Positions 8,685 to 57,420 of a stretch of 64,000 bases of DNA are shown piece by piece. Below the pieces are notes generated by a model, which searched no databases, had not been told where the DNA came from, and saw only the letters and a program-made list of their open reading frames with translations. Position 1 is the stretch's first letter. Each line of letters begins with the position of its first letter. Where the stretch lies: the sequence record OR192075.1. The stretch is one strand, 5' to 3'. This DNA is from Escherichia phage MIZ6. The position numbers and the translations under genes were made by a program.

Positions 8685-8691
8685 CCAGTTT

Positions 8692-8934: not shown

Positions 8935-8967
8935 TTTATTTCCTCCAGTTCGTTTCGGTATGGGAGT

Positions 8968-8996
8968 ATAATACTACCGATGACCTTTGGCGTCAA
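8968..8996 (-). promoter_or_regulatory. sigma70-like promoter (TTGACG-17-TATTAT)
   Basis: Minus-strand reading of cgtcaa and ataata; degenerate GGGAGTA palindrome. Confidence 0.35.
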
Positions 8997-9365: not shown

Positions 9366-9369
9366 ATTA

Positions 9370-9642: not shown

Positions 9643-9673
9643 CTTTGATTCTCCTTTTGTTTGGTATGTGTGT

Positions 9674-9702
9674 ATTATGCAATGATGGATTTGTGAAGTC
9701 AA
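9674..9702 (-). promoter_or_regulatory. sigma70-like promoter (TTGACT-17-CATAAT)
   Basis: Minus-strand reading of agtcaa and attatg. Confidence 0.35.
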
Positions 9703-9715
9703 CAACTTTTTAAAA

Positions 9716-9742
9716 TAAAAAAGCCGACCACACGGATCGGCT
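9716..9742 (-). terminator. Intrinsic terminator
   Basis: Hairpin agccgaccacacggatcggct; minus-strand RNA followed by U-run. Confidence 0.45.
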
Positions 9743-9752
9743 TAATAATCAG

Positions 9753-10145
9753 TTACTTACTAAATTTCTTTTTGGCTTCGTCTACCGCATGAGATGCCAG
9801 TACCGCAGCCGCATGTGCACTTTTATCTGTGTTGCAGAGAACACCCAGATAAACATCACGCCAAAGTTTAATCATCTCGTAGATCATATCAATATCATTT
9901 TCTTGTTTGTTGGCGATGCTATTCGTCGTTATCTGGTAAGGTAACGGCTTAATCTGTACTGGTTCCGCCATCGGGCTAAACGGTTTCGGATCAGTCATCG
10001 GATTAATTGATGGCGATGTTTTCCATACGTCATTATTCCACGGTTTAACGGTTGTACCGTATATTTTATAAGGATTTTTGTCTGGATCAACCATCCATGC
10101 ATGATGGATACCTAAACCATTTGAAGTGATGCGTCGTTCAGTCAT
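9753..10145 (-). CDS. Hypothetical protein (130 aa)
   Basis: ATG with SD GAGGGGG. Confidence 0.45.
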   Translation of the reverse strand: MTERRITSNGLGIHHAWMVDPDKNPYKIYGTTVKPWNNDVWKTSPSINPMTDPKPFSPMAEPVQIKPLPYQITTNSIANKQENDIDMIYEMIKLWRDVYLGVLCNTDKSAHAAAVLASHAVDEAKKKFSK

Positions 10146-10344
10146 GTTTTACCCCCTCTGATAATTCTTTCATCAAGCTGTCGATCTTTGCTCTGTGTTC
10201 TGGCGTGTTTGTCATCTCTGCTAATTTGCTCAGAGATTCACTGGTGATCCGGTTGGATTCTTCCAGTGTTTCAACGACAATTGGCACAATCTTTTTATTG
10301 TTGTACAGAAATGCAATATAACCGCCTTCTGGATATTCTTTCAT
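10138..10344 (-). CDS. Hypothetical protein (~68 aa)
   Basis: Track start is TTG; moved to ATG (MKEYPEGG). Confidence 0.4.
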   Translation of the reverse strand: MKEYPEGGYIAFLYNNKKIVPIVVETLEESNRITSESLSKLAEMTNTPEHRAKIDSLMKELSEGVKHD

Positions 10345-10346
10345 AA

Positions 10347-11711
10347 TCAACCCTTCTTAAGTTCTTTAAGATCTTTCTTATATTCCTTCATTGCGGTCGT
10401 CTTTGTCCAATACTCATATTCACTATGATGTTTCTCGGCATCTTTGACCAGTCGATCATACTCTTCTTGAGTAACGCTATACAATGGCATAGAAACTAGC
10501 TTATCGGCGTATGGACGCAGTTTTTCATGTCCATTGATGGATTGCATTACATCGGCCTTTTTCTTTCCCTGTAGCTCGATTTCGCCATTAATTACGAGAT
10601 CGATAAATTCGGCTTTAGCCATTGCATAATTGTATGCTTCCAGCGTTTCCGCTTGCATCAATTCAATGCGTTTATCGACATACCCTAATCGGATTTCGAC
10701 GAATCGACGGATCAGATCGCTCGCTTTCTCGAATACTTCTACTAAACCACGTTCATTAACCACTACGATATTCTGGGCTACTAACTGTGTTAGTTTAAAA
10801 TCCTTCATGATTTGCTCATGTCGAGCGGATTCATCTTCGCTTTTGAAATAATCGCGTTTCAGTGTTACTTCAAATCTGAATCCATCCTTAGAGCAACGGT
10901 CATTATATGAGACAATCAGATCTTTTTCTTCCAGTGCATCCAGTACCGCTACATATTCTTCACGGTCGAACTTATAAGGGACTTCTGATATTGTCAGCTT
11001 AGTCTTGCCGTTTAGTTCATATGTACCCTCAAGAATCACACCATCGCGATCATCTCGCGGGATAACTTTACCCGTGAATTTCGGGAATTGAACACTAGGT
11101 TCTTTATCCAGTTTTCCGGCAAGTGCTAGCTCTGTGCATTCAATGAGGCTTTCCAGTGAATGCGGTAAAATGTCAGTTTTATACCCTGTAGCAATACCAC
11201 TAATACCATTAGCCAATACCATTGGCACAACTGGCAAGTAGAACGCTGGCGGGATGTGTTCCAGATCTTCGTGCTTAGGTGCGCAATTCATATCTTTATA
11301 GATTTTAAAGAAGTTTTCATGCACGCGAGCAAAGATATAACGTGCCGCACCTGCTTTCTGGACTAAACGCGATCCGAAGTTACCTTGACCGTCAAGCAGT
11401 GGAGTATTATTGCTCCATGTATTCGCCATAAGTGATCCGGCTTCTACGGCATTAGTTTCCCCGTGGTGATAACCCAACTCGGCAACACCAGATCCAATAT
11501 CTGCCATCTTACGGAATTTCTTACGGTCGCCTTTACTCTTTTGCAAAGCACATTCCATAACAAAGCGTTGCACTGGTTTAAGCCCATCCACTAATTGAGG
11601 AATCCCGCGTTCCTCGGCAGAATAGATCGCATATTCCTTAGCTTCATTATGTACAATGCTTTCAAGGCTGCGGTAAGTAAATGTGTTTACAATTTGACTA
11701 ATTTTATCCAT
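10347..11711 (-). CDS. 52: DNA topoisomerase II medium subunit (GyrA-like)
   Basis: Strong similarity to T4 gp52 (DGLKPVQRFV, GYHHGE, LLDGQGNFGSR); track GTG start replaced by ATG (MDKIS) with SD GAGGTG. Confidence 0.9.
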   Translation of the reverse strand: MDKISQIVNTFTYRSLESIVHNEAKEYAIYSAEERGIPQLVDGLKPVQRFVMECALQKSKGDRKKFRKMADIGSGVAELGYHHGETNAVEAGSLMANTWSNNTPLLDGQGNFGSRLVQKAGAARYIFARVHENFFKIYKDMNCAPKHEDLEHIPPAFYLPVVPMVLANGISGIATGYKTDILPHSLESLIECTELALAGKLDKEPSVQFPKFTGKVIPRDDRDGVILEGTYELNGKTKLTISEVPYKFDREEYVAVLDALEEKDLIVSYNDRCSKDGFRFEVTLKRDYFKSEDESARHEQIMKDFKLTQLVAQNIVVVNERGLVEVFEKASDLIRRFVEIRLGYVDKRIELMQAETLEAYNYAMAKAEFIDLVINGEIELQGKKKADVMQSINGHEKLRPYADKLVSMPLYSVTQEEYDRLVKDAEKHHSEYEYWTKTTAMKEYKKDLKELKKG

Positions 11712-26694: not shown

Positions 26695-27330
26695 TTAATC
26701 TAATGTAGAAAGCAAATGTTTTGTTTCTTTCAGTTGTCGTTCAAGATTTTTGCGTTTCTCTTTAAGTTGCATTTTAGCATTATTTCGCTCTCTTGTAACC
26801 TCTTTATCAATGCTCTTATTCCAGTTATCAATATCAGAATAAGTTGGCATACCCAATTCTAGACCTAATGCGGTTGGATGCAGGGTAACAGTCCATAAAC
26901 CGCTAATCTTCTTAAACAGGTCGGGGTGTAGTGTACTATCTACATCTTCCGGTGTCAACTCTTTTTCTTCTTTCAGTGGTGGGATCTCGTCATATGGTTC
27001 CAGTGCATTTACTTTAATATCAGATACCTCATCAAAGAATCCGCGTACATCCGCAGGAAATACACAAGCAATTTCCCAACCGTGATCACGCAGAGAAGTA
27101 ATATTTTTCACTCCCCCACCATGTGTGATGATTGATGTGACATTGCCATCAAGGTCCACCGAATTTACGAGAAATGGCTTATCGTCTGTCAGATCATTAT
27201 AAAACTGTGCTTCGGCTGTAGTCATCTCCAGAAACAGATCTCGGATCGGACGACCATCAGGTGCGTTACCTTCCTTGAGAGTATAAAAGCGACTTACGAT
27301 CCATTTTGGCGGTAAAGAATTAGCGATCAT
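26695..27330 (-). CDS. Hypothetical protein (211 aa)
   Basis: Track ORF between helicase and primase genes. Confidence 0.45.
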   Translation of the reverse strand: MIANSLPPKWIVSRFYTLKEGNAPDGRPIRDLFLEMTTAEAQFYNDLTDDKPFLVNSVDLDGNVTSIITHGGGVKNITSLRDHGWEIACVFPADVRGFFDEVSDIKVNALEPYDEIPPLKEEKELTPEDVDSTLHPDLFKKISGLWTVTLHPTALGLELGMPTYSDIDNWNKSIDKEVTRERNNAKMQLKEKRKNLERQLKETKHLLSTLD

Positions 27331-27380: not shown

Positions 27381-28793
27381 TTAGAAAGTCATGTTATTTG
27401 CTAGCTCGTCGAGTTTTTCTCGTTTCTCGGCTTGCTGTGCGCTTTGTGGTTTAACTTGTGCATTCTCCTGATCTGCGATCTGGTTTGGTACTTCATACCA
27501 ACGCTGATTTCCTTTTTTCACACCAACGTTAAACCGTGAATAATAGTTCTTGTCACCGTAACGAGACTTGATCTGCTTCATGAGTTGAACGCCCATTTTA
27601 GCCAGGTCTTCGGTTTCGATAACACCCAACATAAAATCGGCTGTAGCCGGAAGACCTGCTGATTCAGCGGTATCACTCATGTTAAGGTCGGAAGCATCCC
27701 AACCCGCGCGGGTAGTCTGTGCCGCAGTCCAACCAACAACATCCCACTTAACAAAAAATCCTCGCAGTTCTTCCGCAATCGCCTTAACTAGTGTGTAACT
27801 ATTTTCAGAGTATACACGCAAGCGAGACGATGCGCAAATCCCCAGATAGTCAACAATCACAACATCAGGTTTAAACTGTTTCTTGAGTCGCAATTCATTC
27901 ATTAACGCCTCAAAGTGATTGGAGTTTGCGCCACCAGTCGGATACTGCTTGATCATCAATTTTCCAACCGGACGATCTCCGATCTTCTTATTCTTAACAC
28001 GCTTCATACGTGCGGAATATTCCGCAAAAGAAACATTACCATTATCCAATTCATCTAATGTAATGTCAAGCAAGTTTGCGTCGATACGTTTGGCTACGAC
28101 ATGCTCTGCCATCTCCATTGAGATATACAATACATCATAACCACATTCCATATAATCCGCAGCAAGAGAACACAAGCCAAGCGATTTACCAACGTTTACA
28201 CCAGCAAGCAACACATTTAGCGTTTTTCTTTCCGCCCCTCCTTTCGTGATTTTATTCAACATCGGCAGCTTAAACGGGATCTTATTCGCCTTAGTCTGAT
28301 ATAGCAAGAATCGTTTTTCAAAGTCATTAAACCAGTCATGACCTACATCAGAATCAAACGTAATGGATAGTGCTTCCTGCATAATTTCAGGAATAGCGCC
28401 CTCACTAGGCAATTTCTTATTCTGTTTCTCTTTTGGTAGTTGTGCGTTCGCCTGAATCTCTAGCGCCCGTGACATTGCATTATACATGGCACGGTCACGA
28501 ATAAATTTTTCGGTTTCCTTCATTAACCAATCAAGGTCTTCCGGTGTATTCTCCAGCGAATCGAGAAGAGTTTTAGCCCCTTCATATGTTGTCTGATTGC
28601 CTCTCTCCTTGTCCAAAGCAATCTGTAATGCAGTTGGCGTAGGAATATTGGAATATTCGTCTACGTGCTTTTTAATCAGCTTATAAATCAGTTTTTCTTC
28701 GTCTTCGGTGAAGTAGTCCGCTTTAAGGTGAGGCCATACATTCGTAAAGAATGCGCCATTGTAAATCAACTGTGAAAAGATAGTTTTAATCAT
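27381..28793 (-). CDS. 41: Replicative DNA helicase (DnaB-like)
   Basis: 470 aa; strong similarity to T4 gp41 (LNVLLAGVNVGKS, YISMEMAE, IKQYPTGGA). Confidence 0.9.
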   Translation of the reverse strand: MIKTIFSQLIYNGAFFTNVWPHLKADYFTEDEEKLIYKLIKKHVDEYSNIPTPTALQIALDKERGNQTTYEGAKTLLDSLENTPEDLDWLMKETEKFIRDRAMYNAMSRALEIQANAQLPKEKQNKKLPSEGAIPEIMQEALSITFDSDVGHDWFNDFEKRFLLYQTKANKIPFKLPMLNKITKGGAERKTLNVLLAGVNVGKSLGLCSLAADYMECGYDVLYISMEMAEHVVAKRIDANLLDITLDELDNGNVSFAEYSARMKRVKNKKIGDRPVGKLMIKQYPTGGANSNHFEALMNELRLKKQFKPDVVIVDYLGICASSRLRVYSENSYTLVKAIAEELRGFFVKWDVVGWTAAQTTRAGWDASDLNMSDTAESAGLPATADFMLGVIETEDLAKMGVQLMKQIKSRYGDKNYYSRFNVGVKKGNQRWYEVPNQIADQENAQVKPQSAQQAEKREKLDELANNMTF

Positions 28794-42248: not shown

Positions 42249-43718
42249 CTATTCCCCATTACCATTATACTTTCTTTGCTTAGTTATCCACACTCTAACC
42301 ATCTCTACGGATTCACCGTCAGACGGATCAAGAGTTTTTCCTTTTTTCTTCATGCGGTACTTAAATCCGTTAAATCTTGCATTCTCTTGCTCGTTAAAGT
42401 CGAACATCTTTTTAAATGATTTTCGCCCTTTACGCTCACCGCATTCTAGCGGAATCATTCGGTCTGTTATTACATTGGCATTAGGCAGAAACGTTTTTAG
42501 ATAATCCACCAACGCCCAATCAGGAACATATAGATTAACATTCTCCTTGCTCTCGTTGTCTCTCAGGTTACAACGCAAACATAATTGAAATGCTGGTTCC
42601 AGATAATCAGACACATGACGCGCTTTCAAAAACTCGTTTGTTGGGAGATCACAACTATTAGCAAGACCTTTTAAAATATCAATCTCCCATCGTTGAGGGT
42701 TAAAGCTGAACATCACAGCAACATTTTTATGATGAATGTAAGAGTTAAGACCATAAGATCCGTAAGGTATCCGCTCACCAATACCATTTGTGCACGCTTC
42801 ACGGTCCCGATTCACGGTATAAATGAAGTCATCACCACATTCATTTTTAACCATATCAACAAGACGTTCAAAGGTATTGTTTGTTTCTGACTGGTGACGC
42901 GACCATCGTTCGGAGTCCGTCATAAGGATGATGTTAACTCTATCTGTATTTTTATACTCTTTGAAATATAGTCTGGATTCTAGCGCACTCGGAACAAAAT
43001 CGCAATTTGCATAGTATCGTAGATACTTCCCACTATATGTATCAAAGAGATTTGCACATGCTATCGTAACCTTTTTAAAGTCTCCCCACGTACCGTGTTT
43101 GTTATCGTTCAAGAAAACAATTTTCGACCCATTCTTCCGGTGTCCTTCGTTATGTTTTACCATAACGTTGATTTTCTTCTCTAATAACGCCTCATAAAGC
43201 CCTCTAAGAGAAGAATCGATCATATCAGTACCATCCTTTGCACTTTCTATCTTTTCTTTGATAGCGGCCTTCTCAGAGTCTTTTAGAACTAAGTTCTGTA
43301 GGCATTCCGATTCGTCGGCGATTGGTTCGCAATGCTTCGTGATAAGTTCAAGATTAGACTTAAACGGATACTCATTAAATTCAACCAGTTGAGGAACTTC
43401 ATCAATGTAAAGAGCATATTCACCAAACATTTTTGAACGTTCCATATTAGATAACGCTGTATGTGTAATGAATATCACATCAGCACCATCTTTAACTGAT
43501 TGCATTATAGACGCTTGCACTGTCTTAAGGCTTCTTAGTCTTGTGCTATCAATCAAGACAGCACGACCGCCCATTCTTTTAAACTTATTGTAAGATTGTT
43601 CACTTAAAACACGAGATGGCGAAGCAATAACCGCTTTTTCTTTTGTCTCTAGGACGTGGGAAAGTATAGCATCAGTTTTCCCCGCCGCTGGCAATGCGAT
43701 TAATGTTTCAATCTTCAT
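42249..43718 (-). CDS. P-loop NTPase, SF2 helicase-like N-terminal domain, function unknown
   Basis: Walker A PAAGKT, motif Ia-like SPSRVLSEQ, Walker B YIDEVPQ; 489 aa; no T4 counterpart I can recall. Confidence 0.5.
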   Translation of the reverse strand: MKIETLIALPAAGKTDAILSHVLETKEKAVIASPSRVLSEQSYNKFKRMGGRAVLIDSTRLRSLKTVQASIMQSVKDGADVIFITHTALSNMERSKMFGEYALYIDEVPQLVEFNEYPFKSNLELITKHCEPIADESECLQNLVLKDSEKAAIKEKIESAKDGTDMIDSSLRGLYEALLEKKINVMVKHNEGHRKNGSKIVFLNDNKHGTWGDFKKVTIACANLFDTYSGKYLRYYANCDFVPSALESRLYFKEYKNTDRVNIILMTDSERWSRHQSETNNTFERLVDMVKNECGDDFIYTVNRDREACTNGIGERIPYGSYGLNSYIHHKNVAVMFSFNPQRWEIDILKGLANSCDLPTNEFLKARHVSDYLEPAFQLCLRCNLRDNESKENVNLYVPDWALVDYLKTFLPNANVITDRMIPLECGERKGRKSFKKMFDFNEQENARFNGFKYRMKKKGKTLDPSDGESVEMVRVWITKQRKYNGNGE

Positions 43719-44185: not shown

Positions 44186-44444
44186 AAATCGCCCTCAGTT
44201 CTTTATAGCCTCCAATGTGCTCGTTGTTAATGAATATCTGGGGGTATACAAACCGGAGGCTCTTTGAGTTCAGCCTCCCCGCCAGTTCTTCAATCATATC
44301 ACGGTCGGGAATAATGTCAACCCCGACCTGCTTGAATACTGGTTTAAGTGTATACGGAATACCCAGATCATCCAGTAGCTTCATTGCACTAATACAACCA
44401 TAACAATGATAAGCCTCTTTCGGTATGCCGTATATCTCGATCAT
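44175..44444 (-). CDS. Glutaredoxin/NrdH-like redoxin
   Basis: 89 aa; CYGC active-site motif and C-terminal IGGYKEL pattern. Confidence 0.6.
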   Translation of the reverse strand: MIEIYGIPKEAYHCYGCISAMKLLDDLGIPYTLKPVFKQVGVDIIPDRDMIEELAGRLNSKSLRFVYPQIFINNEHIGGYKELRAIYDY

Positions 44445-44917
44445 TTCTCAGCCTTTAATCTTTCTAGTTCTTCTTCCAGTTCCTTGATCCGTTGGTCACG
44501 TTCAAAGTCACGTTGTAGCTTAGTGGCAAATACCCGCTTAAACTGATTGTAATCATCGATTTTAAACACTTCTTCTTCGCCATAGCGACGTACAGAAACT
44601 TCGTAGTTATTGAAGAATTGTTGCATCATTGCTTCGGATGATAGTTCTGCTGATACTACTTTAAAATATTGATCTTCTGTAGGCGAAAACCAATTACAAG
44701 CATAAAGATAAACCTTTTCATTGTCTGGGCACTGGTAAGCCTTACCATCGATTTCAATCACAGAAACATATTCAGGTATAGTAGATGAATCAATAGCTAA
44801 GACTTTAAACTGACGGTCCCCGATAAACTCAGAGATCACACGATTCGCATCACTGGTTGCAAAGGCTTTACGCGCTTGTTCGCTTTTCCACTGATAGGTC
44901 ATACCAACAACAAACAT
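44441..44917 (-). CDS. Family-A paralog (novel ~90-aa domain plus coiled-coil tail)
   Basis: TYQWKSEQARKAF...IEIDGKAY...QYFKVV core; C-terminal KELEEELERLKAEK; track TTG start moved to ATG. Confidence 0.5.
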   Translation of the reverse strand: MFVVGMTYQWKSEQARKAFATSDANRVISEFIGDRQFKVLAIDSSTIPEYVSVIEIDGKAYQCPDNEKVYLYACNWFSPTEDQYFKVVSAELSSEAMMQQFFNNYEVSVRRYGEEEVFKIDDYNQFKRVFATKLQRDFERDQRIKELEEELERLKAEK

Positions 44918-44918
44918 A

Positions 44919-45743
44919 TTACCAACCTCGCTCTTTACCAATCAAAAATTCAACTTCACGACGTTTAATGTCTTCTTGAAGGTCTTTAATCTTCTGGCGA
45001 TCTTGCATGATTTCGTCCATTTTGTCAAGTGCTGCAATAAAATCATCGAAACGTTCAAAGGTTTTACCTTCATTTGCTTCGCCAAATTTAACCATAGTCA
45101 GACCGTAACGACTACTAAACAGACGTTTCAACTGTCCAACGATCTTAGAATCAGTGGTTATAACTTCCAATTCTTCTACTTCTTGAAAGAATTTTCTATC
45201 AGAATCAATAAACCAGCTAGTTCCTTTATGGTTGCTATCTTCGGTTGCACTCATTAGAGTATGGTCTTTACCATCAATTTCAATTACATCAATTTGCCCA
45301 CATGGACGAACATTTTTAACAGTAAAAGGTCTATAATTTATTGCTCGTGCAATAACATAATTAAGGTTAGATACGTTTTCAGCATAATGGCAGAAGTCGG
45401 TCATAGCATTCGCATCTTTCCAAGTATAAGTTTTACCAACTTCCCATTTCTGGGGAACTTCTTCAACTTCACGAAAGAATTTTCTATCGAATGGACTAAA
45501 GAAATATGTTGCCGTCCAAATGTCTTTTCCTGTAGCAGTTTTCGCCGTATGATAAACACCGTCTAGCTCTATTGCATTAATCCAACCATTACCCTCGATC
45601 TCGATGATGGTAAATGGCTTGTCACCAATAGCTGCACTAATATCGCTATTAAGTGGAGAAAGAACACCTTCTCCGTTAGTAATAAACTCAGTTTTAGCGT
45701 TTACATCTTTCCAGGTGTAAGTTTTACCAATTTCCCATTTCAT
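44919..45743 (-). CDS. Family-A paralog with two tandem copies of the domain
   Basis: MKWEIGKTYTWKD...RKFFREVEE then QKWEVGKTYTWKD...RKFFQEVEE; helical C-terminus. Confidence 0.5.
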   Translation of the reverse strand: MKWEIGKTYTWKDVNAKTEFITNGEGVLSPLNSDISAAIGDKPFTIIEIEGNGWINAIELDGVYHTAKTATGKDIWTATYFFSPFDRKFFREVEEVPQKWEVGKTYTWKDANAMTDFCHYAENVSNLNYVIARAINYRPFTVKNVRPCGQIDVIEIDGKDHTLMSATEDSNHKGTSWFIDSDRKFFQEVEELEVITTDSKIVGQLKRLFSSRYGLTMVKFGEANEGKTFERFDDFIAALDKMDEIMQDRQKIKDLQEDIKRREVEFLIGKERGW

Positions 45744-45755
45744 AATATATTCCCC

Positions 45756-46256
45756 TTAACCGATTTTATCAAGTTCGTTTAATGCTTTCTCTGCTTCCTG
45801 TATAGCTTGCACCCTTTCCGGCATTTTGTCAAGAAAATCTTTCAACTCTTCAAAACTGGAGATATGACGCAAGGCATTAGCACCGATAGCCGCATGTGAT
45901 TTGCATTCAAAGCGAATTTTATAATTATCCATAGCCAATTTGAGAAGATCAATTAGATCATATTCACGACCAGGCAATAAAACTTCTTTGAAGCACGCTC
46001 GGTCGCCATCGGAAAACCATATATTATCGCCAACATCGATAGAACTAATATAATCCCCTTCGTGATTATAGATTGAACGTACATTACCCCAACGGTCTAC
46101 AGTAGCGACAGTAAATGGTTTATCTAGATATGTAAACACACCATCAATATTAGGTTTTTGTTCGTAACGCCAACAATCACGCAAAATACGCTTTTCGTAC
46201 TCACCAACCAACTTATATGTCTTCCCTTCTTCCCATTTCATAATATCATCTCTCAT
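45756..46256 (-). CDS. Family-A paralog
   Basis: MKWEEGKTYKL...RACFKEV; conserved C-terminal F.ELKDFLDKMP module. Confidence 0.5.
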   Translation of the reverse strand: MRDDIMKWEEGKTYKLVGEYEKRILRDCWRYEQKPNIDGVFTYLDKPFTVATVDRWGNVRSIYNHEGDYISSIDVGDNIWFSDGDRACFKEVLLPGREYDLIDLLKLAMDNYKIRFECKSHAAIGANALRHISSFEELKDFLDKMPERVQAIQEAEKALNELDKIG

Positions 46257-46782
46257 TTTTGATATGTGATTCTAATTGGATCATACGGTCGCGCGTTTGC
46301 TTATATTCTCGGATAGCACCGATCCGGCTAGGCATACCATCCAGTACGCTCTTAATCCCTTCTAGGGTAGTGATTTTAGCAATACTATTATGCAATCCCA
46401 TCTTATCGATTAACTGAATGTCGTAGGCTTCCATAAGCAGACCCAGACGTTCTAAAGTTAGGTCTTCTTCTTTTTCTTCCGATTCTGGAATCTTAGGTTC
46501 AATAGTAACTTCGGTAAAGAAACGACGCTCGCCCGACCAAAACCACACACCGGAACAGCCAATAGGGGATTCTTTTAACGTCATAGAGTCGTAACCGCTG
46601 CCGATAATAGTAATTTCTCTAACATCACCATCATCGTCAATGTCTTCTACCCTAAACGGGCGACCAGCCAACAAGTCAACAATACATCTGTTAATAGACG
46701 ACGAAAATTTAGTCAGTTCGGCTTTCGACGCTTCGCATTCAATCTTGTAAGTTTTACCAACTTCCCATTCCATAATAATCAC
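46246..46782 (-). CDS. Family-A paralog
   Basis: MEWEVGKTYKI...RRFFTEV; C-terminal LEGIKSVLDGMP module. Confidence 0.5.
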   Translation of the reverse strand: MIIMEWEVGKTYKIECEASKAELTKFSSSINRCIVDLLAGRPFRVEDIDDDGDVREITIIGSGYDSMTLKESPIGCSGVWFWSGERRFFTEVTIEPKIPESEEKEEDLTLERLGLLMEAYDIQLIDKMGLHNSIAKITTLEGIKSVLDGMPSRIGAIREYKQTRDRMIQLESHIKNER

Positions 46783-46783
46783 C

Positions 46784-47287
46784 TCAAATAATTTTCACTG
46801 GAATACTATTAACAATCTTGTATTGTACTTGATTGTCAGACCCCCGCCACGGCTTCTTCGTTGGCATATCTTTAATATAACGACCATCGATGAACATGTC
46901 AACTGATTCTACAATTTTTCTTTGCTCATCATTCAATTGGTCAAGGGTATAACCAGACCATAGCCAAATATCTTTATTTGGCATCCATGATTTTACTTCA
47001 TCGATGATCCGCTGTACACCCTTTAAATTGCGTTTATACAGTGGATCGCCACCTAAGAATGTTAGCCCCTGAATAAAATCAGGTCTAAGCAGATCCAGAA
47101 TCAATCCCATTGTATCATCGGTGAATGGTTCCCCGTTCTTAGGATTGAGTATACTGGAATTAAAGCAACCATCACATGCGTGTGAACATCCGGTAACGTA
47201 AAGGGAGACTCTCACTCCCTCACCGTTAACCATATCACAATCTTTAATATCGGCATAGCGTAGTTTGCCGTATGTATCAGAACTCAT
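46784..47287 (-). CDS. nrdG: Anaerobic ribonucleotide reductase activating protein (radical SAM)
   Basis: CSHACDGC radical-SAM cluster motif, similarity to T4 NrdG (DIWLW.GY, PTKK.WRGSDNQ); track TTG start replaced by ATG. Confidence 0.85.
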   Translation of the reverse strand: MSSDTYGKLRYADIKDCDMVNGEGVRVSLYVTGCSHACDGCFNSSILNPKNGEPFTDDTMGLILDLLRPDFIQGLTFLGGDPLYKRNLKGVQRIIDEVKSWMPNKDIWLWSGYTLDQLNDEQRKIVESVDMFIDGRYIKDMPTKKPWRGSDNQVQYKIVNSIPVKII

Positions 47288-47429
47288 ATTCAATTACCCC
47301 GAACTCGTTTACAATCTGCGCTTTATAGTAACCACCGCGAGATGCTAATAGATAAGCTGGGCTTAGGTATTCGTATTCACGGATTTCTACTTGTGCGTTT
47401 TCAGTTTCCCAAATCAGTAAAGTCCACAT
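47277..47429 (-). CDS. Hypothetical small protein (~50 aa)
   Basis: Start moved to ATG (MWTLLIW) with SD AGGAGA; promoter upstream. Confidence 0.3.
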   Translation of the reverse strand: MWTLLIWETENAQVEIREYEYLSPAYLLASRGGYYKAQIVNEFGVIEYEF

Positions 47430-47471
47430 ATTTGATTCTCCTGTAAAGTTGTATCTCGTCTTGATGAATAT

Positions 47472-47500
47472 AGTATAGGGGATCTCGCGATCCCCGTCAA
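47472..47500 (-). promoter_or_regulatory. sigma70-like promoter (TTGACG-17-TATACT) with GGGGATC..GATCCCC palindrome (two GATC) filling the spacer
   Basis: Minus-strand reading of cgtcaa (47495-47500) and agtata (47472-47477). Confidence 0.35.
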
Positions 47501-47504
47501 GCAT

Positions 47505-48053
47505 TTATTTTAAATTTTTTCGAATGTATTCAGACCATTCCTTCCCTGTCATTTCGGACCCGTTCTGGAAACTGAAATATTCATACGGCATCGAGTCAAG
47601 ATAAAACAGGATCATACATCGCGCCATATAATACCAATCACGATTAAAGTAAACTACGTTATCACCAGTACCATCAACCCCTTTATCATAACCATCGCGG
47701 GTACGGGCGACCCATTGAATAGTATCATTTTTCTCGCGGATCGTAACAGGTTCCCAATATCCAGCACATCCAGCATGACCACACGAACAAGTCAGGAAAT
47801 ATTGACCTTTTGCTTTGTTGTCATCCCATTCACGATGGATTGGTTCGATCTCGTGAAACAGTGCTAAGCAATCATGATTATGCAACACTGGCTTACCATC
47901 AATCAATGCATGGAATGTATACAAACGACCAGTAGACAAATAGCTATCCTCACGCTCAACCAGTTCAATAGCAATCTTTTTAGCTCGTTCTTTGTGTCGT
48001 TGTGCTTTACGCTTACGGTTTAATGATTTCATATTCACCTCACACATTATCAA
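47505..48053 (-). CDS. Hypothetical Cys-containing protein (182 aa)
   Basis: Track ORF; CSCGHAGCAGYW motif. Confidence 0.45.
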   Translation of the reverse strand: MIMCEVNMKSLNRKRKAQRHKERAKKIAIELVEREDSYLSTGRLYTFHALIDGKPVLHNHDCLALFHEIEPIHREWDDNKAKGQYFLTCSCGHAGCAGYWEPVTIREKNDTIQWVARTRDGYDKGVDGTGDNVVYFNRDWYYMARCMILFYLDSMPYEYFSFQNGSEMTGKEWSEYIRKNLK

Positions 48054-48460
48054 AGGTCGCGATATAGTACATTATGAAAATGAGAACTTGCATTACCAAT
48101 ATTGTAGATAATAAATTCTTCATCCGGCGCTTGCGCTACAAATTGAGTATGAGCAACCGCCACAACCTTAAAAATACGATCCGTGATCTTGTGTTTAATT
48201 TCTGCTCCTACTTCCATAGGAACATATTCATGTGTTTCTGTTTCAGTCGCAAAACAGCCATCTTCTTCATAAGCACGAACAAATCGATCGCAATCAGTAC
48301 GCTTAACAAATTCAAGAGTATATAATTCTCGTGAATTGTCGGTATAGACCAACACAGAATTATTCTGATAGCGAATCACATACAGGTTATTATCATCGTC
48401 AATTACGCAAAAGCTACGGATTTGTGTTCCTTCGCCTTTACTCCAGCAGATATTAACCAC
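48050..48460 (-). CDS. Hypothetical protein (start uncertain)
   Basis: Track ORF begins with GTG and overlaps the upstream gene by ~58 nt. Confidence 0.35.
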   Translation of the reverse strand: MVNICWSKGEGTQIRSFCVIDDDNNLYVIRYQNNSVLVYTDNSRELYTLEFVKRTDCDRFVRAYEEDGCFATETETHEYVPMEVGAEIKHKITDRIFKVVAVAHTQFVAQAPDEEFIIYNIGNASSHFHNVLYRDL

Positions 48461-48594
48461 CGTTCCTCTAATAAAAAACTTTCCTTTAAATTAAAACTAG
48501 ACAATGTGCTAGCGTGCATTTTCACAACAACACCATCGCCAATTTCCAGTTTACGAAGTTTAACTTCTTTGCTCAGTACACAAAACATCATCAT
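48403..48594 (-). CDS. Hypothetical protein (63 aa)
   Basis: ATG with SD GAGGA and promoter upstream. Confidence 0.4.
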   Translation of the reverse strand: MMMFCVLSKEVKLRKLEIGDGVVVKMHASTLSSFNLKESFLLEERWLISAGVKAKEHKSVAFA

Positions 48595-48623
48595 GTTGTC
48601 CTCTCGTTGTTTTCGATGTGAGC

Positions 48624-48651
48624 ATTATACATTAGCTAATCATGTTGTCAA
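48624..48651 (-). promoter_or_regulatory. sigma70-like promoter (TTGACA-16-TATAAT)
   Basis: Minus-strand reading of tgtcaa (48646-48651) and attata (48624-48629). Confidence 0.4.
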
Positions 48652-48660
48652 CACCCCAAA

Positions 48661-48689
48661 ACGAAAAAGCCGACCCTTTCGGATCGGCT
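48661..48689 (-). terminator. Intrinsic terminator after nrdD
   Basis: Hairpin agccgaccctttcggatcggct with flanking A/T runs. Confidence 0.5.
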
Positions 48690-48694
48690 GAAAA

Positions 48695-50557
48695 TTACAT
48701 GTGCTTAACGCGGTTTACCATCTCGGAGTGTTTCCCGTGGTTGAATGGACGCAGATCAACAGATCCAAGATATCCACTAACGCGACGGATAACATTCATC
48801 TTTTCCAGATTGTCATTGCCGCAATCAGGGCAAACAAAACCAGACTCGGTCGCTCTCATTTCCTTAGTAGATCCGCATACATGACATACATCAGAAGGAG
48901 TATTAACACCGAAGTAGTGCAATTTATCCATTGCATAGTCTACTACAGTTTCAAGACCTTTCAGGTTGTTTTTCATGTCTGGGAACTCAACATAAGAGAT
49001 CATGCCCCCGGACGCCAGCCAGTGATAATCTTTCTCAAAGTCGATTTTCTCAAATGGAGTGACTTTCCGGTCTACGTCAAGGTGGAATGAGTTGGTGTAC
49101 CAGTCTTTATCGGTAGCACCCTTAACAATACCAAATTGCTCTCGGTCCAGTCGATTAAATCGATAGCAAAGGCTCTCGGCTGGCGTACCGTAAAGACTAA
49201 ACCCAAGTCCAGTTTCGTCCTTCCATTTTTCAGTATAATGACGCAAGATCTTAAGAATATGTTTACCGTATCGCTGCGCAACTTCCGAATCAAACGGATG
49301 AACACCAAACAGGACGCTCAATACCTCATGTAAACCAATATATCCAAGAGAGATACTAGCGCGACCATCTTTCAGAACTTCCAAAATTTCATCGTTTTGA
49401 TGAATACGGAAAAATGCACCTTCGGTATACAGTACAGGAGCAACATTGGCTTTAGCCCCTTTTAAAGCGTCTACGCGACTCATGAGCGCATCAAAGCAAA
49501 TAGGCATACGATTAGCTAGCTCTTGTTCGAATAGCTCAATTCTGCGCATTACAGACTCTTTACCAGCACGACGAGCGGCAATAAGGGCAATACGCGGAAG
49601 ATTCAGAGTCACAACACCTAAGTTATTACGTCCGTCTAATACTTCCTCGCCTTTCTCATTATGCCACACACCCAGGAAGCTACGACAACCCATCGGGCTA
49701 ACCGGAACACTAGATCCGGTGATACTACGGTTATTCTTTGCAGAGATATAATCAGGGTAAAGACGCTTACTAGAACATTCCAATGCAAGTTGCTTAATGT
49801 CGTAGTTCGGATCTTCCGGTTTAAGGTTTAATCCTTCTTCTAAGAACATCACCAGCTTAGGAAACACCGGAGTGATACCATCTTTACCTAAACCTTTAGT
49901 TCGAACTTTCAGGATCGCTTTCTGAATCAGTTTTTCTTCCCAGCTAGTACCCATACCAAATGTTAAAGTCACAAAAGGTGTTTGACCGTTGGTGGAGAAC
50001 AAAGTGTTGATTTCATATTCCAACGCTTGATACCCGTCTAGCGTTTCTTTTTCTGTCTTCTCTTGTGCATAGAGAGTATCAGCTTTGATTCCGTAGGTTT
50101 CGGCATCAGCAAGGTGTTTATAATATGTTTTCTCAACGTATGGAGCTAACACCTGATCGATGTTTGCAATTGTGGTCCCGCCATATTGATGACTTGCCAC
50201 CTGTGCGATAATTTGAGCGGTTACAGCACAAGCAACACCGATCGATTTAGGACTTTCGATTTGTGCGCTACCCAATTTAAAACCATTCTCTAGCATGTCT
50301 TTTAGATTAACAAGACAGCAGTTAGTAAACGGCATAGCGGGTGCATAATCCATATCATGATAATGAATATCACCGTCTACATGCGCTTTATAGATGTGCT
50401 CAGGTAACACGGTTTTAGCAATCTGTTTAGACACAGCGCCAGCAATCAGATCTCGACGTGTCGGGAATGTTCGCGCGTCTTTGTTCGCGTTCTCTTTGCT
50501 TACTTCGTTTTCTTTACCCGTTGCGATCTCTGTAATGTCTTTGATTAGTTTTTCCAT
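48695..50557 (-). CDS. nrdD: Anaerobic ribonucleoside-triphosphate reductase (class III, glycyl radical)
   Basis: 620 aa; strong similarity to T4 NrdD; C-terminal zinc site CHVCG..CPDCG and glycyl-radical motif RRVSGYLG; uninterrupted (no intron). Confidence 0.9.
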   Translation of the reverse strand: MEKLIKDITEIATGKENEVSKENANKDARTFPTRRDLIAGAVSKQIAKTVLPEHIYKAHVDGDIHYHDMDYAPAMPFTNCCLVNLKDMLENGFKLGSAQIESPKSIGVACAVTAQIIAQVASHQYGGTTIANIDQVLAPYVEKTYYKHLADAETYGIKADTLYAQEKTEKETLDGYQALEYEINTLFSTNGQTPFVTLTFGMGTSWEEKLIQKAILKVRTKGLGKDGITPVFPKLVMFLEEGLNLKPEDPNYDIKQLALECSSKRLYPDYISAKNNRSITGSSVPVSPMGCRSFLGVWHNEKGEEVLDGRNNLGVVTLNLPRIALIAARRAGKESVMRRIELFEQELANRMPICFDALMSRVDALKGAKANVAPVLYTEGAFFRIHQNDEILEVLKDGRASISLGYIGLHEVLSVLFGVHPFDSEVAQRYGKHILKILRHYTEKWKDETGLGFSLYGTPAESLCYRFNRLDREQFGIVKGATDKDWYTNSFHLDVDRKVTPFEKIDFEKDYHWLASGGMISYVEFPDMKNNLKGLETVVDYAMDKLHYFGVNTPSDVCHVCGSTKEMRATESGFVCPDCGNDNLEKMNVIRRVSGYLGSVDLRPFNHGKHSEMVNRVKHM

Positions 50558-50602
50558 TGTATCACCTATGAAAAAGCGGGATTTTCTCCCGCTCGTTGAT
50601 AG

Positions 50603-51097
50603 TTATTTTACCAGTTCTGCTAATTCTTTTTCTTTAGCTTCCAGTTCAGCCTTAAGCTGTTTAATCTCTTGTCGCTTCTTATTAGCGGCTTCTTGCTTAC
50701 TATTTCGGATAACCTGATCTAGATACAACTCCCAATCCTGAATATTTTTGATAATATAACCGTCAACATTAATTGGTCGGATATTTAGTACAGCTTCCAG
50801 TTTAGTCGCAAAAACTTTAATTGCTGGGGTGAAGTATTCATATTCGTTATCTTCAAACCAATAACCTAGACTTGCATTATCAATACGAAGACGAAGTTCA
50901 AGATCAAGGTCTTTATCTTCGGTGTAAAGATCTTTCACCTGACCCAGCGAACTAACAACAACTTTAAAACGAATTTTATCTACACCACCAAACACATCAG
51001 TAAGTATACCAGCAATTGAGCTATTAGCGCAAGATTGGTCGCTGAATGCGTCAAGGTTTTCTTTAGTTACAGTATACCAAACATCTTGTACCCACAT
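50603..51097 (-). CDS. Family-A related protein (shares FATKL module and coiled-coil tail)
   Basis: KVFATKLEAV segment matches family-A gene 44441..44917 C-terminal module; KQLKAELEAKEKELAELVK tail. Confidence 0.45.
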   Translation of the reverse strand: MWVQDVWYTVTKENLDAFSDQSCANSSIAGILTDVFGGVDKIRFKVVVSSLGQVKDLYTEDKDLDLELRLRIDNASLGYWFEDNEYEYFTPAIKVFATKLEAVLNIRPINVDGYIIKNIQDWELYLDQVIRNSKQEAANKKRQEIKQLKAELEAKEKELAELVK

Positions 51098-51118
51098 AAT
51101 ATAATCCTCTCGTTGTTA

Positions 51119-51146
51119 AGTGGGAGTATTATAGCATACTCCCTTC
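51119..51146 (-). promoter_or_regulatory. sigma70-like promoter (TTGACA-16-TATAAT) inside GGGAGTA-N8-TACTCCC palindrome
   Basis: Palindrome 51113-51134 overlaps -10. Confidence 0.4.
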
Positions 51147-51151
51147 GCATG

Positions 51152-52330
51152 TCAAGCACTAACTTTTTTCTTTATTGCTTTCACCTTCTGGCGAATTGCT
51201 CGAATCTCTTCGATCTCTTTTTCAGTATCTTTAACAATTTCTTTGCGATTCTGAATATCTTTATCGAGATTATCATCAAGTTTAGGCAGCATGTCAATCA
51301 AGAACTTTTTAAGGTCTTTCAGGTTGCGAATAACAGTACCTTCACCCATTACCGCCACGCCTACACCATCCGGCAGATCACCAAACAGCTTAACCAGTTC
51401 AGACAGATGATCATGATCTTCTAGTGCTTCTTCTGATTCAGATGGCAGTTCAACAAAGTTATAACGTTCATCATTGCTGATCAGGTGATACCAGCAAAGC
51501 CCAAAAGATTTAGGAGTATATTCTACACCACCAACTTCAACTGCGTCAACACTTCCGAAAGAATCTACTTTAGTTACCTTAAATCCATGTTCCAGCGTTT
51601 TAATAATTTCAATAACATGACTGGATACGGTTTCAGTATTAAACCAATGAGGCAAATTATGTGGATTTGGCTTGTATCGTTCGCCTACTTTAAATCTCTG
51701 ACCACGCTCTTGCATACGGACATATTCAACTCGCGTGATTTCCGCGAAGTATTCAAATTCGCTACCGTCAAACAAGCAATTCCATTGATCACAAAAACGA
51801 TCCGCCTTGACGGTTTCACCTTTCGCGGTGATCATGGTAGCTGATCCGTGCAATTCTTCTTCAACCAAAAAGCCATATTCGACAAAATCAACAAGTTTCA
51901 TGGCTTCTTTGTGCTCTGGGTCATGCTCTCCCCAGAATCGCTTAAATTCTTGCAAACCTTCTGGTGTAAACGAATAACATTTACCTTTTTCAAAGTAAGT
52001 CGGCATTGCATCCTCTTTCTTGTTCATCGCTTCGTATGCCTCTTTTGAGATGCGTTTAAAGTATTTACGCTCATCGTGCATAATCATAGTAGCCCAATAA
52101 TAAACGATATCCTCAGCGGAATAAACTACATCTCCAGCTTCAATAGTAATAACATGACCGTTGTCATCTTTTTCTAATACTTTAAAGCCCTTTTCGACGA
52201 TTTCAGCAACCCGAATATGACCACGGCGCGAAGCATCGGTCAGAATAATTGAATAGCGAGAAAAGTCTAGAAACTCATCTTTACCACCTTCACGGAATGC
52301 ATAGTAATGACCTTCAAAGAATTTAGCCAT
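51152..52330 (-). CDS. Family-A paralog with about four tandem domain copies
   Basis: 392 aa; repeated ...F.V.....G.....IE.G.V.Y......YF..I blocks incl. ERKYFKRI; helical C-terminus. Confidence 0.5.
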   Translation of the reverse strand: MAKFFEGHYYAFREGGKDEFLDFSRYSIILTDASRRGHIRVAEIVEKGFKVLEKDDNGHVITIEAGDVVYSAEDIVYYWATMIMHDERKYFKRISKEAYEAMNKKEDAMPTYFEKGKCYSFTPEGLQEFKRFWGEHDPEHKEAMKLVDFVEYGFLVEEELHGSATMITAKGETVKADRFCDQWNCLFDGSEFEYFAEITRVEYVRMQERGQRFKVGERYKPNPHNLPHWFNTETVSSHVIEIIKTLEHGFKVTKVDSFGSVDAVEVGGVEYTPKSFGLCWYHLISNDERYNFVELPSESEEALEDHDHLSELVKLFGDLPDGVGVAVMGEGTVIRNLKDLKKFLIDMLPKLDDNLDKDIQNRKEIVKDTEKEIEEIRAIRQKVKAIKKKVSA

Positions 52331-52361
52331 AATATAATCCTCTAGTTGTTTAAATGGGAGT

Positions 52362-52390
52362 ATCTTACTACTCCCGTTTCATCATGTCAA
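52362..52390 (-). promoter_or_regulatory. sigma70-like promoter (TTGACA-17-TAAGAT) inside GGGAGTATCTTACTACTCCC palindrome
   Basis: 20-bp palindrome identical to the one at 8069-8088. Confidence 0.4.
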
Positions 52391-52393
52391 GCG

Positions 52394-52954
52394 TTAAAGT
52401 GACTTTTGGATCTCTTTCAGTTCAGCTACTTTATCGGCGCTGAATTTAGCGTAGGTATCATGTCGAATAATTTCACTTTCAAGAAAGGTTTCCAGCCGAG
52501 ATCTATTTTCAATAAGGAACTCTTTCAGGTCTTCCGCGTTCTTGATAAAGATTTTATTGTCAGTAATGTCATCTTCAATCGCAAAGGAGATAGAGCGAAC
52601 TTTACCAAACAAGTTAATCAGATCTTCCAGCGATTCTTCTTTCTTAACTGGTTTCATTTCTTCAAACTGCTTTTTAGTGATGCGTTTAAAGTATTTGCGC
52701 TCGTTTGCAGCAATCAGAACAGATGCACCTTCATACCCATGAGTTTCTACCAGATACACACGCCCCATCGCATCAACAGTGAGAACTTTAAAGCCGTTAC
52801 AAAGCACGTCATACAAGAACTTATTATGTTGCGGACATCGTTTGATAAATTCTGCGGCTGTTTCTGCACTACGGAAAGTATAGTAACGACCTCGTTCAAA
52901 AACAGCATCATTTGAAGACTTAGCCGGATACAATTTATACGTTTTCTGTACCAT
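52394..52954 (-). CDS. Family-A paralog
   Basis: YKLYPAKSS...ERKYFKRI; start moved to ATG (MVQKTYK) after GAGGATTATATT. Confidence 0.5.
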   Translation of the reverse strand: MVQKTYKLYPAKSSNDAVFERGRYYTFRSAETAAEFIKRCPQHNKFLYDVLCNGFKVLTVDAMGRVYLVETHGYEGASVLIAANERKYFKRITKKQFEEMKPVKKEESLEDLINLFGKVRSISFAIEDDITDNKIFIKNAEDLKEFLIENRSRLETFLESEIIRHDTYAKFSADKVAELKEIQKSL

Positions 52955-52968
52955 AATATAATCCTCTA

Positions 52969-53241
52969 TCATTTCACTAATTGAACAGCACGAAACAGAA
53001 TGCGGTCACACGGAAGAAGCATAAATTCCCAACGCGGATCAAAGTCTTTAGCGGTATATGTTTTCCCATCAACCGAGATTTCACTTACATAACCAATAGG
53101 TGACACTTTAAGAACAGTAAACCCATTCTTGATGACTTCGTAGGTATCTTTCAATCCTTCGTAGTCATCCTCTAGGAAGTCTTTACGTGCTTGCTCAGAT
53201 TTAAAAACATAGGCAACACCGGATTTAAACATCTTACGCAT
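52969..53241 (-). CDS. Family-A paralog, single domain (~90 aa)
   Basis: YVFKSEQARKDF...SVDGKTYT...ILFRAV; start moved to ATG (MRKMFKSG) with SD AAGGAG. Confidence 0.5.
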   Translation of the reverse strand: MRKMFKSGVAYVFKSEQARKDFLEDDYEGLKDTYEVIKNGFTVLKVSPIGYVSEISVDGKTYTAKDFDPRWEFMLLPCDRILFRAVQLVK

Positions 53242-53272
53242 TGTTGATTCTCCTTCTTGATTAGATGGGAGT

Positions 53273-53301
53273 ATTTTACTACTCCCATTTCTTATTGTCA
53301 A
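53273..53301 (-). promoter_or_regulatory. sigma70-like promoter (TTGACA-17-TAAAAT) inside GGGAGTATTTTACTACTCCC palindrome
   Basis: Minus-strand reading of tgtcaa (53296-53301) and atttta (53273-53278). Confidence 0.4.
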
Positions 53302-56532: not shown

Positions 56533-56907
56533 TTAAAAATCTTCTTCCGGTTTATATCGACCGTCATCGACTGGTTTTGGACTGAATCCGGTATGTTTGC
56601 GCGGCTTCGCTTCCGGTTTCCCCGCGATCGATAGTCCAAGCCATTTAAGAAGTTTGTATGAGTAAGCGATGATCACAACCACCCACGTTAAAGGCCATAC
56701 AATAGAACAAATGGCATATGCTCCGGTATCGACCTCTTTGGTGTCCTTATCGAATCTGGCATACAAGCAAATTATAAGATATGTGATCATTGCACCAGTA
56801 GGCCAAATATAAAGCACATTAACAATATCTTGTGTTGTCACGTTATCCTCCTTACATGTCTTGCAGTGCATAAAAGCATTTTTCTTCGTAGTCATAGAAA
56901 ATGTCAA
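56533..56907 (-). CDS. Hypothetical membrane protein (124 aa)
   Basis: Two hydrophobic helices. Confidence 0.4.
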   Translation of the reverse strand: MTFSMTTKKNAFMHCKTCKEDNVTTQDIVNVLYIWPTGAMITYLIICLYARFDKDTKEVDTGAYAICSIVWPLTWVVVIIAYSYKLLKWLGLSIAGKPEAKPRKHTGFSPKPVDDGRYKPEEDF

Positions 56908-57130
56908 AGTATGCTTTTTCTACATACTCACCATTGATCCAAGCGGCAGTAACAATCAGAGTGGTCCAGTTAGATCCGCTCTCAACGGTAAAGGTTTTAA
57001 TACCCAGCTTCGCTGCCAAGTCACGAGCAAACTGATCGCAACCACGGCAGGAAGTGATATTGGAAGTTTTGATTTTAAAGCCACCGCGAGTTTTAGAAAT
57101 TTCTACTTTAGCGAAAGACAGGTTGCTCAT
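56852..57130 (-). CDS. Hypothetical protein (~92 aa), family-C (shares N-terminal motif with 60162..60383)
   Basis: Start moved to ATG (MSNLSF) with SD AGGAGA; FAKVEISKTRGGFKIK resembles VKIIKSSAGFGFMRGAK. Confidence 0.4.
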   Translation of the reverse strand: MSNLSFAKVEISKTRGGFKIKTSNITSCRGCDQFARDLAAKLGIKTFTVESGSNWTTLIVTAAWINGEYVEKAYFDIFYDYEEKCFYALQDM

Positions 57131-57172
57131 TTTGATTCTCCTTAAGAAAGTGTGTTTCGTTTTGATGTGTGT

Positions 57173-57201
57173 AGTATAGGGGATCACCGATCCCCTGTCA
57201 A
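57173..57201 (-). promoter_or_regulatory. sigma70-like promoter (TTGACA-17-TATACT) with GGGGATCaccGATCCCC palindrome (two GATC) as the spacer
   Basis: Minus-strand reading of tgtcaa (57196-57201) and agtata (57173-57178). Confidence 0.4.
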
Positions 57202-57210
57202 CAACTTTTT

Positions 57211-57420
57211 TTATGATTTTAGTGAATTAACCACTACATCAAAATGATGTACAGAGTACACCTTACGAAACACATACTCATCGTGTTTAGGAATAGCGCC
57301 TAACCGCTTTATTTCGCTCGCTGACACGATAAACCGTTTATCCGGTGCATTTACCTTATATGCTTCAACAACGCACGGAAAACGCGTTTTAGCGAGTTCG
57401 GGATAGTTTTCTGACTCCAT
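57211..57420 (-). CDS. Family-B small protein (start uncertain)
   Basis: ...KRFIVSASEIKRLGAIP motif; start moved to ATG (MESENYP) to avoid overlap. Confidence 0.35.
   Translation of the reverse strand: MESENYPELAKTRFPCVVEAYKVNAPDKRFIVSASEIKRLGAIPKHDEYVFRKVYSVHHFDVVVNSLKS

Follow-up and report, generated by a model that had tools for sequence, protein, structure and literature searches.

An expanded array of GoF-family proteins around nrdG and nrdD in the RB49-like Escherichia phage MIZ6, with discrete head alleles on constant tails

In the 64,000-nucleotide (nt) stretch of Escherichia phage MIZ6 analysed here (sequence record OR192075.1; the whole stretch is referred to as the window) the genes nrdG and nrdD are flanked by eight open reading frames (ORFs) whose products share a recurring domain of about 90 amino acids (aa), and the question raised by this locus is what the domain is and what an array of such proteins could do. 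The initial annotation, made from the sequence alone, had proposed a novel domain that it did not recognise. It is, however, the N-terminal domain of the T4 proteins GoF and Frd.2 as well as MotB.1, described in 2025 (PMC12152347), and the claim of novelty largely fails because the family is already known, named and partly annotated in these genomes. The copies of the domain (hereafter heads) belong, with near certainty, to this GoF/Frd.2/MotB.1 family of T4-like phage early proteins. The domain family itself is not new, and the remaining interest lies in the size of the expansion, the architecture of tandem heads and coiled-coil tails and the discrete head alleles, none of which was found described.

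A hidden Markov model (HMM) built only from the window copies matched T4 GoF with 30.2 bits (HMM positions 3–93 corresponding to GoF residues 4–91) and Frd.2 with 14.5 bits over the full length, and its match to MotB.1 was marginal (E 0.009 among 8 proteins), while a broader family HMM matched Frd.2 at E 2.3e-11 and MotB.1 at E 7.4e-5 over the full length. When 1.84 billion representative proteins were searched with the window-only profile just 68 matches were returned, about 55 of them true members (76–392 aa, mostly with the domain at or near the N-terminus), among the matches being the GoF cluster representative P0176 at E 1.8e-4. About 12 long bacterial Ig-like repeat proteins (P0126, P0129, P0135, P0155, P0164 and others) were rejected as false positives; they match profile positions ~40–78 alone (FTVxxxDxxGN...), many times over, and these matches were treated as stemming from a beta-hairpin motif and not from homology. 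Cross-matches in PHROGs are labelled 'goF mRNA metabolism modulator', and RefSeq calls the genes at 51152..52330 and 52394..52954 goF. When all members and T4 GoF were scanned against Pfam and NCBIfam, nothing rose above noise; none of the eight proteins had a Pfam match at E ≤ 1 (LSM and Hfq included), and a profile search of PDB sequences found no solved structure. The family was described as 'LSm-like' by Kim et al. 2025 (PMC12152347), in whose paper RB49-like phages, arrays of paralogs and tandem heads go unmentioned.

The window phage is an RB49-like Krischvirus (Straboviridae), the 8.8-kb array region being 100% identical to that of Escherichia phage MIZ2 and sharing 95–99% identity with most of the RB49-like phages found, 58 in number. 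All array genes are on the minus strand and the genes follow each other as gp55, nrdH, [A B C D], nrdG (46784..47293), nrdD (48695..50557), [E F G H], endonuclease VII, nrdC and dam, so that the array flanks both nrdG and nrdD. The eight ORFs of the initial annotation are present at or near the positions it gave; six of the coordinate pairs hold as they were, and for the ORFs it had placed at 45756..46256 and 46246..46782 better starts are ATG 46241 (161 aa) and ATG 46773 (175 aa), which agree with database homologues and with GenBank. A ninth member, annotated Dc2 in RB49 and JSE, was found outside its range. The members are, with the letters used from here on:

44441..44917, minus strand: gene A, 158 aa; one GoF-type head (aa 1–92) and a helical tail ending in a coiled coil
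44919..45743, minus strand: gene B, 274 aa; two tandem heads (aa 1–97 and 98–195) and a tail
45756..46241, minus strand: gene C, 161 aa; one head and a tail (..ELKDFLDKMP.. followed by a coiled coil)
46246..46773, minus strand: gene D, 175 aa; one head and a tail, directly downstream of nrdG
50603..51097, minus strand: gene E, 164 aa; one divergent head and a tail, between a promoter-early stem-loop (PeSL) promoter and nrdD
51152..52330, minus strand: gene F, 392 aa; three tandem heads (aa 1–98, 110–202 and 210–299) and a tail
52394..52954, minus strand: gene G, 186 aa; one head, which is basic (pI 9.1), and a tail; goF in RefSeq
52969..53241, minus strand: gene H, 90 aa; head only, without a tail
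26695..27330, minus strand: Dc2, the ninth member, 211 aa; one head and a tail

Besides its RefSeq name, gene F is annotated frd.2 in the 2003 record of RB49.

The paralogy of the eight genes is real, since an all-against-all BLASTP search links their products. An HMM made from nine copies recovered the left-out middle copy of gene F at E 8e-5 among 656 six-frame ORFs, and family-wide leave-out HMMs, run on the complete phage with its 1578 six-frame ORFs, recovered every member (gene H at E 9e-19). Gene E was marginal with the seed HMM (E 0.013) and reached E 3e-10 in the 1578 ORFs with a family HMM built without E and its nearest homologues; it also matches phrog_3710. For Dc2 the corresponding values were E 6e-6 with the seed HMM and E 2e-9 in the leave-out test, and in gene B two HMM domains were found with independent E-values of 1e-24 each. 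When the whole MIZ2 genome was scanned, all nine genes and 12 domain copies fell inside the window, and the remainder of that genome yielded no additional member, just weak matches (E 0.0014–0.03). One weak match lies within the window (56855..57226, minus strand), an ORF of ~92 aa that covers the C-terminal two thirds of the head profile with 12.9 bits (E 0.005 in 1578 ORFs) and could represent a highly divergent tenth member; comparable weak matches are found at MIZ2 134369..134689 and 138209..138586.

The head consensus, F.xGKxY..F...FxVxxVDxxGxVxxIE..G..Y...F..ERxxFxEV, in which Y11, F41 and F83 are invariant, agrees with the recurring core motif of the initial annotation. The tandem arrangement of paralogs with internally duplicated domains that it saw in a phage early region is borne out as well, the region being a plastic, probably early one of a T4-like phage. 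The copy numbers of the initial annotation were too high; 11 heads are counted in the eight genes (two in B, three in F and one in each of A, C, D, E, G and H) in place of ~13, and the maximum per protein is three in place of about four, a fourth head in the 392-aa gene F not being found by HMM. Ten of the 12 heads are acidic (isoelectric point, pI, 4.3–5.6), the exceptions being those of G and H (pI 7.8).

A shared helical module, also noted initially, was identified as a tail in seven of the eight genes (all but gene H), and since Dc2 carries it too, eight of the nine proteins have it. It follows an acidic linker and its alignment is collinear across the tailed proteins. The same layout, a barrel at the N-terminus followed by a linker and a separate C-terminal part, is found in the ~55 library members, and in the window it is departed from by H, without a tail, and by B and F, with extra heads. 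In the AlphaFold2 model of gene D the head has a predicted local distance difference test score (pLDDT) above 90 and residues 95–103 form a disordered linker, after which the tail is modelled as a helix (105–116), two strands (119–121 and 132–134) and a long helix (137–174). This long amphipathic tail helix (30–40 residues) suggests dimerisation, probably in the form of a coiled coil; for GoF itself both a monomer and a dimer are reported (PMC12152347).

Family-wide leave-out tail profiles recovered seven of the eight tails (E 9e-9 to 2e-3; gene A at E 4.7e-7) but not the tail of gene D (E 0.28), and a small HMM from the eight window tails alone gave no clear recovery in leave-one-out tests; coiled-coil composition may inflate the tail profile scores. 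The tails of T4 GoF and Frd.2 gave no match to the Krischvirus tail profile, and when the PDB was searched by Foldseek with the model of full-length gene D, no match had E < 0.1 and the tail matched nothing. Gene E had initially been linked to gene A by a FATKL module together with the coiled-coil tail. The common tail stands, but the pentapeptide is at non-equivalent alignment positions in the two genes and its sharing is thus a coincidence.

For the head, AlphaFold2 gave a model of the 90-aa gene H product with pLDDT 92.3 and a predicted template modelling (TM) score of 0.82, in which the elements follow each other as b1-a1-a2-b2-b3-b4-(a)-b5, with the helices between strands 1 and 2. Because of this order the fold is described here as a FeoA-like SH3 barrel, 'LSm-like' being a looser label, and the head is modelled as a bent, five-stranded antiparallel barrel of this type. 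The closest PDB neighbours of the model are FeoA proteins and IdeR, the same as for GoF in PMC12152347. Foldseek against BFVD (predicted viral structures) gave 46 matches with TM 0.7–0.87, including VR7 'GoF' and ECD7 'Dc2'; the named matches are all, except one (phAPEC8), from T4-like phages of many genera, several of which have multiple paralogs.

Variable heads on constant tails were observed when the nucleotide sequence of the region was aligned with those of FL15, FL04, RB49 and GEC-3S and when identity to the window segments was sorted into classes across the 58 Krischvirus genomes. The genes gp55, nrdH, nrdG, nrdD and endonuclease VII show 98–99.8% nt identity in the four phages, and the 58 genomes are about 99% identical in flanking genes, whereas the heads vary as follows (B2 being the second head of gene B):

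Head of gene A: 68.9% nt identity in FL15 and 73.6% in FL04; among the 58 genomes, 36 at ≥95%, 9 at 60–80% and 13 at <60%
Head B2: 54.9% nt identity in FL04; 53 genomes at ≥90% and 5 at <60%
Head of gene C: 58.2% nt identity in FL15 and 57.8% in RB49; 28 genomes at ≥90% and 30 at ~43%
Head of gene D: 61.3% nt identity in FL04; 51 of 58 genomes at ≥90%, the others at <80%
Tail of gene C, for comparison: ≥95% in 58 of 58 genomes

The identity classes of the heads are discrete, without intermediates. The tails adjoining variant heads are mostly 95–97% identical in nucleotide sequence, with lower values for gene A in FL15 (84.8%) and gene D in FL04 (91.6%); in gene B of FL04 it is the second head that has been replaced, next to a tail of 95.8%. 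At the protein level variant heads are 42–63% identical and tails 88–98%. Intragenomic gene conversion was considered as the source of the variant heads and rejected, since each of them best matches its positional orthologue, which points to alleles from an outside pool and not to copies of neighbouring paralogs. Discrete alleles on constant tails in near-identical genomes would argue for the heads being specificity modules.

Head number varies as well, P0123 being a one-head form of the two-head gene B, and in FL15 (L012, 8322..8802) the orthologue of gene C is frameshifted into two ORFs of 113 aa and 59 aa, showing that array members can be lost. No family member was found in the region of T4 that is syntenic to the array. 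In two distant T4-like contigs (L010 and L011) GoF-like genes are again located next to nrdH or nrdD. One of them, L010 (a Logan SRR14300940 contig), contains at 5920..11569 at least five consecutive genes of 250–354 aa with two or three heads each, just upstream of a split nrdD, and also encodes SIR2, NADAR and HD-domain proteins.

To see how the array could be expressed the upstream regions have to be considered, and four elements were identified:

53267..53301, minus strand: PeSL promoter serving the H-G cassette, TTGACA-17-TAAAAT, in which GGGAGTA..TACTCCC overlaps the -10 hexamer
52356..52390, minus strand: PeSL promoter of gene F
51122..51155, minus strand: PeSL promoter of gene E, TTGACA-16-TATAAT, in which the -35 hexamer and the stop codon of F overlap
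48624..48689, minus strand: PeSL belonging to a different subclass, in which a G+C hairpin upstream of the -35 box is followed by TTGACA-16-TATAAT

Upstream of H, F and E the arrangement is TTGACA, a spacer of 16–17 nt, a -10 box within GGGAGTA-N6-8-TACTCCC, a Shine-Dalgarno sequence and ATG, with the -35 and -10 hexamers agreeing at 10–12 of 12 positions. The palindrome GGGAGTA-N6-8-TACTCCC occurs at five sites in the window, compared with 0 expected in shuffles. Four genes had initially been placed behind such palindromic promoters; this holds directly for H, F and E, while G lies behind H and has no separate promoter, and H and G are predicted to be co-transcribed. The PeSL at 48624..48689 probably drives an operon that takes in nrdG and, after it, D, C, B, A and nrdH, a co-transcription proposed because no strong promoters or terminators lie in between. 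The consensus σ70 PeSL promoters upstream of H, F and E suggest that the array genes are expressed early.

These palindromic promoters are the published promoter/stem-loop cassettes of RB49 and phi1, which were proposed to mediate modular gene shuffling; for other PeSLs experiments have demonstrated activity as promoters (Arbiol et al. 2010, PMC2839356). The same palindrome is found in PeSL promoters at 8069..8103 and 8650..8685, upstream of two unrelated genes, one encoding a 266-aa protein with a signal-peptide-like N-terminus (7240..8040) and one a 69-aa protein (8416..8625), and the element is thus not tied to the GoF family.

Some observations concern the neighbouring genes. One A (about position 48472) that is present in FL15, FL04, RB49 and GEC-3S is absent in the window, as in MIZ2, and its absence divides a 181-aa ORF into two, 48050..48460 and, overlapping it, 48403..48594; the cause is a genuine frameshift or else an error of sequencing in the MIZ2/window lineage. 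Between gp55 and 55.2 (RB49ORF044c) a conserved 489-aa ORF (42249..43718, minus strand) was identified that is unannotated in the records seen, and its counterpart in a distant contig has a weak DEAD-helicase match in Pfam. The ninth member, Dc2, is located immediately downstream of the helicase gene 41 (27381..28793), the gene whose mRNA level is altered by T4 GoF(D25Y) (PMC12152347), a position that may be a coincidence.

What the proteins could do has to be approached through the T4 family. T4 GoF is an abundant, early protein, dispensable in the laboratory and present at about 20,000 copies per cell. The variant GoF(D25Y) raises mRNA half-life after transcription, and wild-type GoF and MotB.1 do little (PMC12152347); in a CRISPR interference screen frd.2 was the sole 'Fit' T4 gene of unknown function (PMC11879866). 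Both goF suppressor substitutions shift GoF towards residues common in Krischvirus heads: the column of D25 has Y or F in four of seven aligned copies and that of G84 has K or R in five of 12 heads, the column before G84 being R in nine of 12 heads and A in GoF. Heads B2, C, D and F1 (the first of gene F) combine an aromatic residue in the D25 column with R or K in columns 83–84.

Starting from the homology, the fold, the architecture, the promoter sequences and the head/tail polymorphism, we infer dimerisation, binding and possibly an effect on RNA, and the best overall explanation, with a probability of roughly 0.55, is that the array encodes expanded GoF-family early proteins that act as non-enzymatic adaptors or decoys altering mRNA fate. 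The products of H-G, F and E would be made early from the σ70 PeSL promoters, and those of D to A by read-through from the nrdG operon. The head would be the ligand-binding part, and the tail would render the protein bivalent or multivalent, probably dimeric. As adaptors or decoys the proteins would change the fate of mRNA after transcription, and by analogy with GoF they might do so through contact with RNA or with part of the machinery of RNA decay or termination, the targets differing from head to head. For its parts the strength differs: that the proteins are binding adaptors in host takeover is an evenly balanced proposition, and a specific role in mRNA stability is put forward tentatively.

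Several points weigh against this explanation. Acidic pI values such as those of most heads are atypical for RNA binders and argue against general RNA binding; they would fit SH3-type protein recognition, or mimicry, better. The tail of the gene D model has a pLDDT of just 60–80, and the column of D25 is situated within a poorly aligned loop. Furthermore, GoF pull-downs gave no partner except GoF itself, and there is no known function for any wild-type family member.

The adaptor explanation can be taken further, to an array that would be a polymorphic recognition system of dimeric adaptors in which the SH3-like heads are swappable specificity modules and the coiled-coil tails are constant. 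Recombination within the conserved tails and the PeSLs would pass heads from one co-circulating phage to another, and the heads would be kept as discrete alleles since each targets a different strain-variable host factor, for example one of defence or of RNA decay. This version is speculative, and the odds are some way against it.

The initial annotation had pointed to host-takeover or anti-defence factors. In such a reading the array would be a repertoire of anti-defence or host-strain-specific inhibitors, in which each head would neutralise a different variable host protein and the RNA link of GoF would be incidental. Such a role would suit the location in a hyperplastic early region with PeSL cassettes (PMC2839356), the paralog expansion, the fact that family members are non-essential in T4, the acidity of most products, the pseudogenised copy in FL15, the varying head number (one in P0123, two in B) and, as circumstantial evidence, the discrete allele classes of heads on constant tails in near-identical phages. 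That polymorphism could however also reflect relaxed constraint and recombination, no member is tied to any defence system in the literature searched, and no similarity to known anti-defence proteins was seen, which leaves this the strongest of the alternatives and a rather doubtful one.

True Hfq/LSm-type RNA chaperones, forming rings and binding RNA directly through the barrel, are suggested by the bent five-stranded antiparallel sheet, by the published label 'LSm-like' (PMC12152347) and by the RNA-related phenotype of GoF(D25Y), which stabilises RNA. The heads, however, have their helices between strands 1 and 2, following strand 1, and not an N-terminal helix before it; they have neither Sm1/Sm2 motifs nor a Pfam LSM match, they are acidic and there is no evidence of rings, AlphaFold3 giving no confident GoF homo-hexamers and wild-type GoF being inactive (PMC12152347). 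Chaperones of this type are thus unlikely.

Less likely still is an accessory role in iron handling or anaerobic ribonucleotide reduction, in which FeoA-like proteins would serve NrdD and the Fe-S activase NrdG. FeoA proteins are the closest neighbours in structure, nrdG, nrdD and nrdH are flanked by the array, as they are again by such genes in the distant contigs L010 and L011, and in T4 frd.2 is located beside frd, td and nrdA. On the other hand, T4 has nrdD, nrdG and nrdH yet no family member there, with GoF and MotB.1 encoded elsewhere. The identity of the heads to FeoA and to the SH3-like domain of DtxR/IdeR (CATH 2.30.30.90) is 8–16%, for FeoA just 16%, and they have no Pfam FeoA (PF04023) match; no metal-binding residues are conserved and neither His nor Cys was seen to be conserved, the positions without variation being the core Y, F and F. 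The resemblance is one of fold alone and does not make the heads members of the FeoA family, and hypervariable heads would be unexpected in a housekeeping cofactor role. As to a previously unknown domain family without any characterised relative, which the lack of a Pfam or NCBIfam model and of a solved structure found by sequence would allow, the significant matches to T4 GoF and Frd.2, the matching PHROG goF families, the goF and frd.2 annotations in existing records and the publication of the family in 2025 (PMC12152347) make it practically untenable.

Of the early proteins of T4-like phages that lack a known function, the GoF family forms one of the more abundant and better conserved sets, and an RB49-type phage with nine members, tandem heads, probable dimerising tails and natural alleles offers a ready-made comparative panel for it. 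The natural head swaps indicate which part of the protein determines specificity, and several heads already carry residues that were created in T4 by goF gain-of-function mutations.

Two known systems bear directly on the array. With the published PeSL cassettes (PMC2839356; Comeau et al. 2014, PMC4122927) it has the parts in common (an AT-rich upstream region, consensus -35 and -10 boxes, a stem-loop over the -10 box, a Shine-Dalgarno sequence and a start codon), with nothing essential different, and the setting is the same, hyperplastic regions and the vicinity of nrdD; it differs from PeSL shuffling in that heads are replaced inside genes, between conserved tails, and not just between PeSLs. 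With T4 GoF (ComC-alpha), Frd.2 and MotB.1 it shares a homologous N-terminal barrel of ~90 aa with the same predicted fold, the layout of head, linker and tail with an acidic linker, and its occurrence, probably as early genes, in T4-like phages. T4, however, has three dispersed single-head genes, whereas the window phage has nine, of which eight cluster around nrdG and nrdD; tandem heads, two or three in number, are present in two of its proteins, eight share a coiled-coil tail that does not match the T4 tails, and, unlike in the T4 family, discrete head alleles are carried on constant tails.

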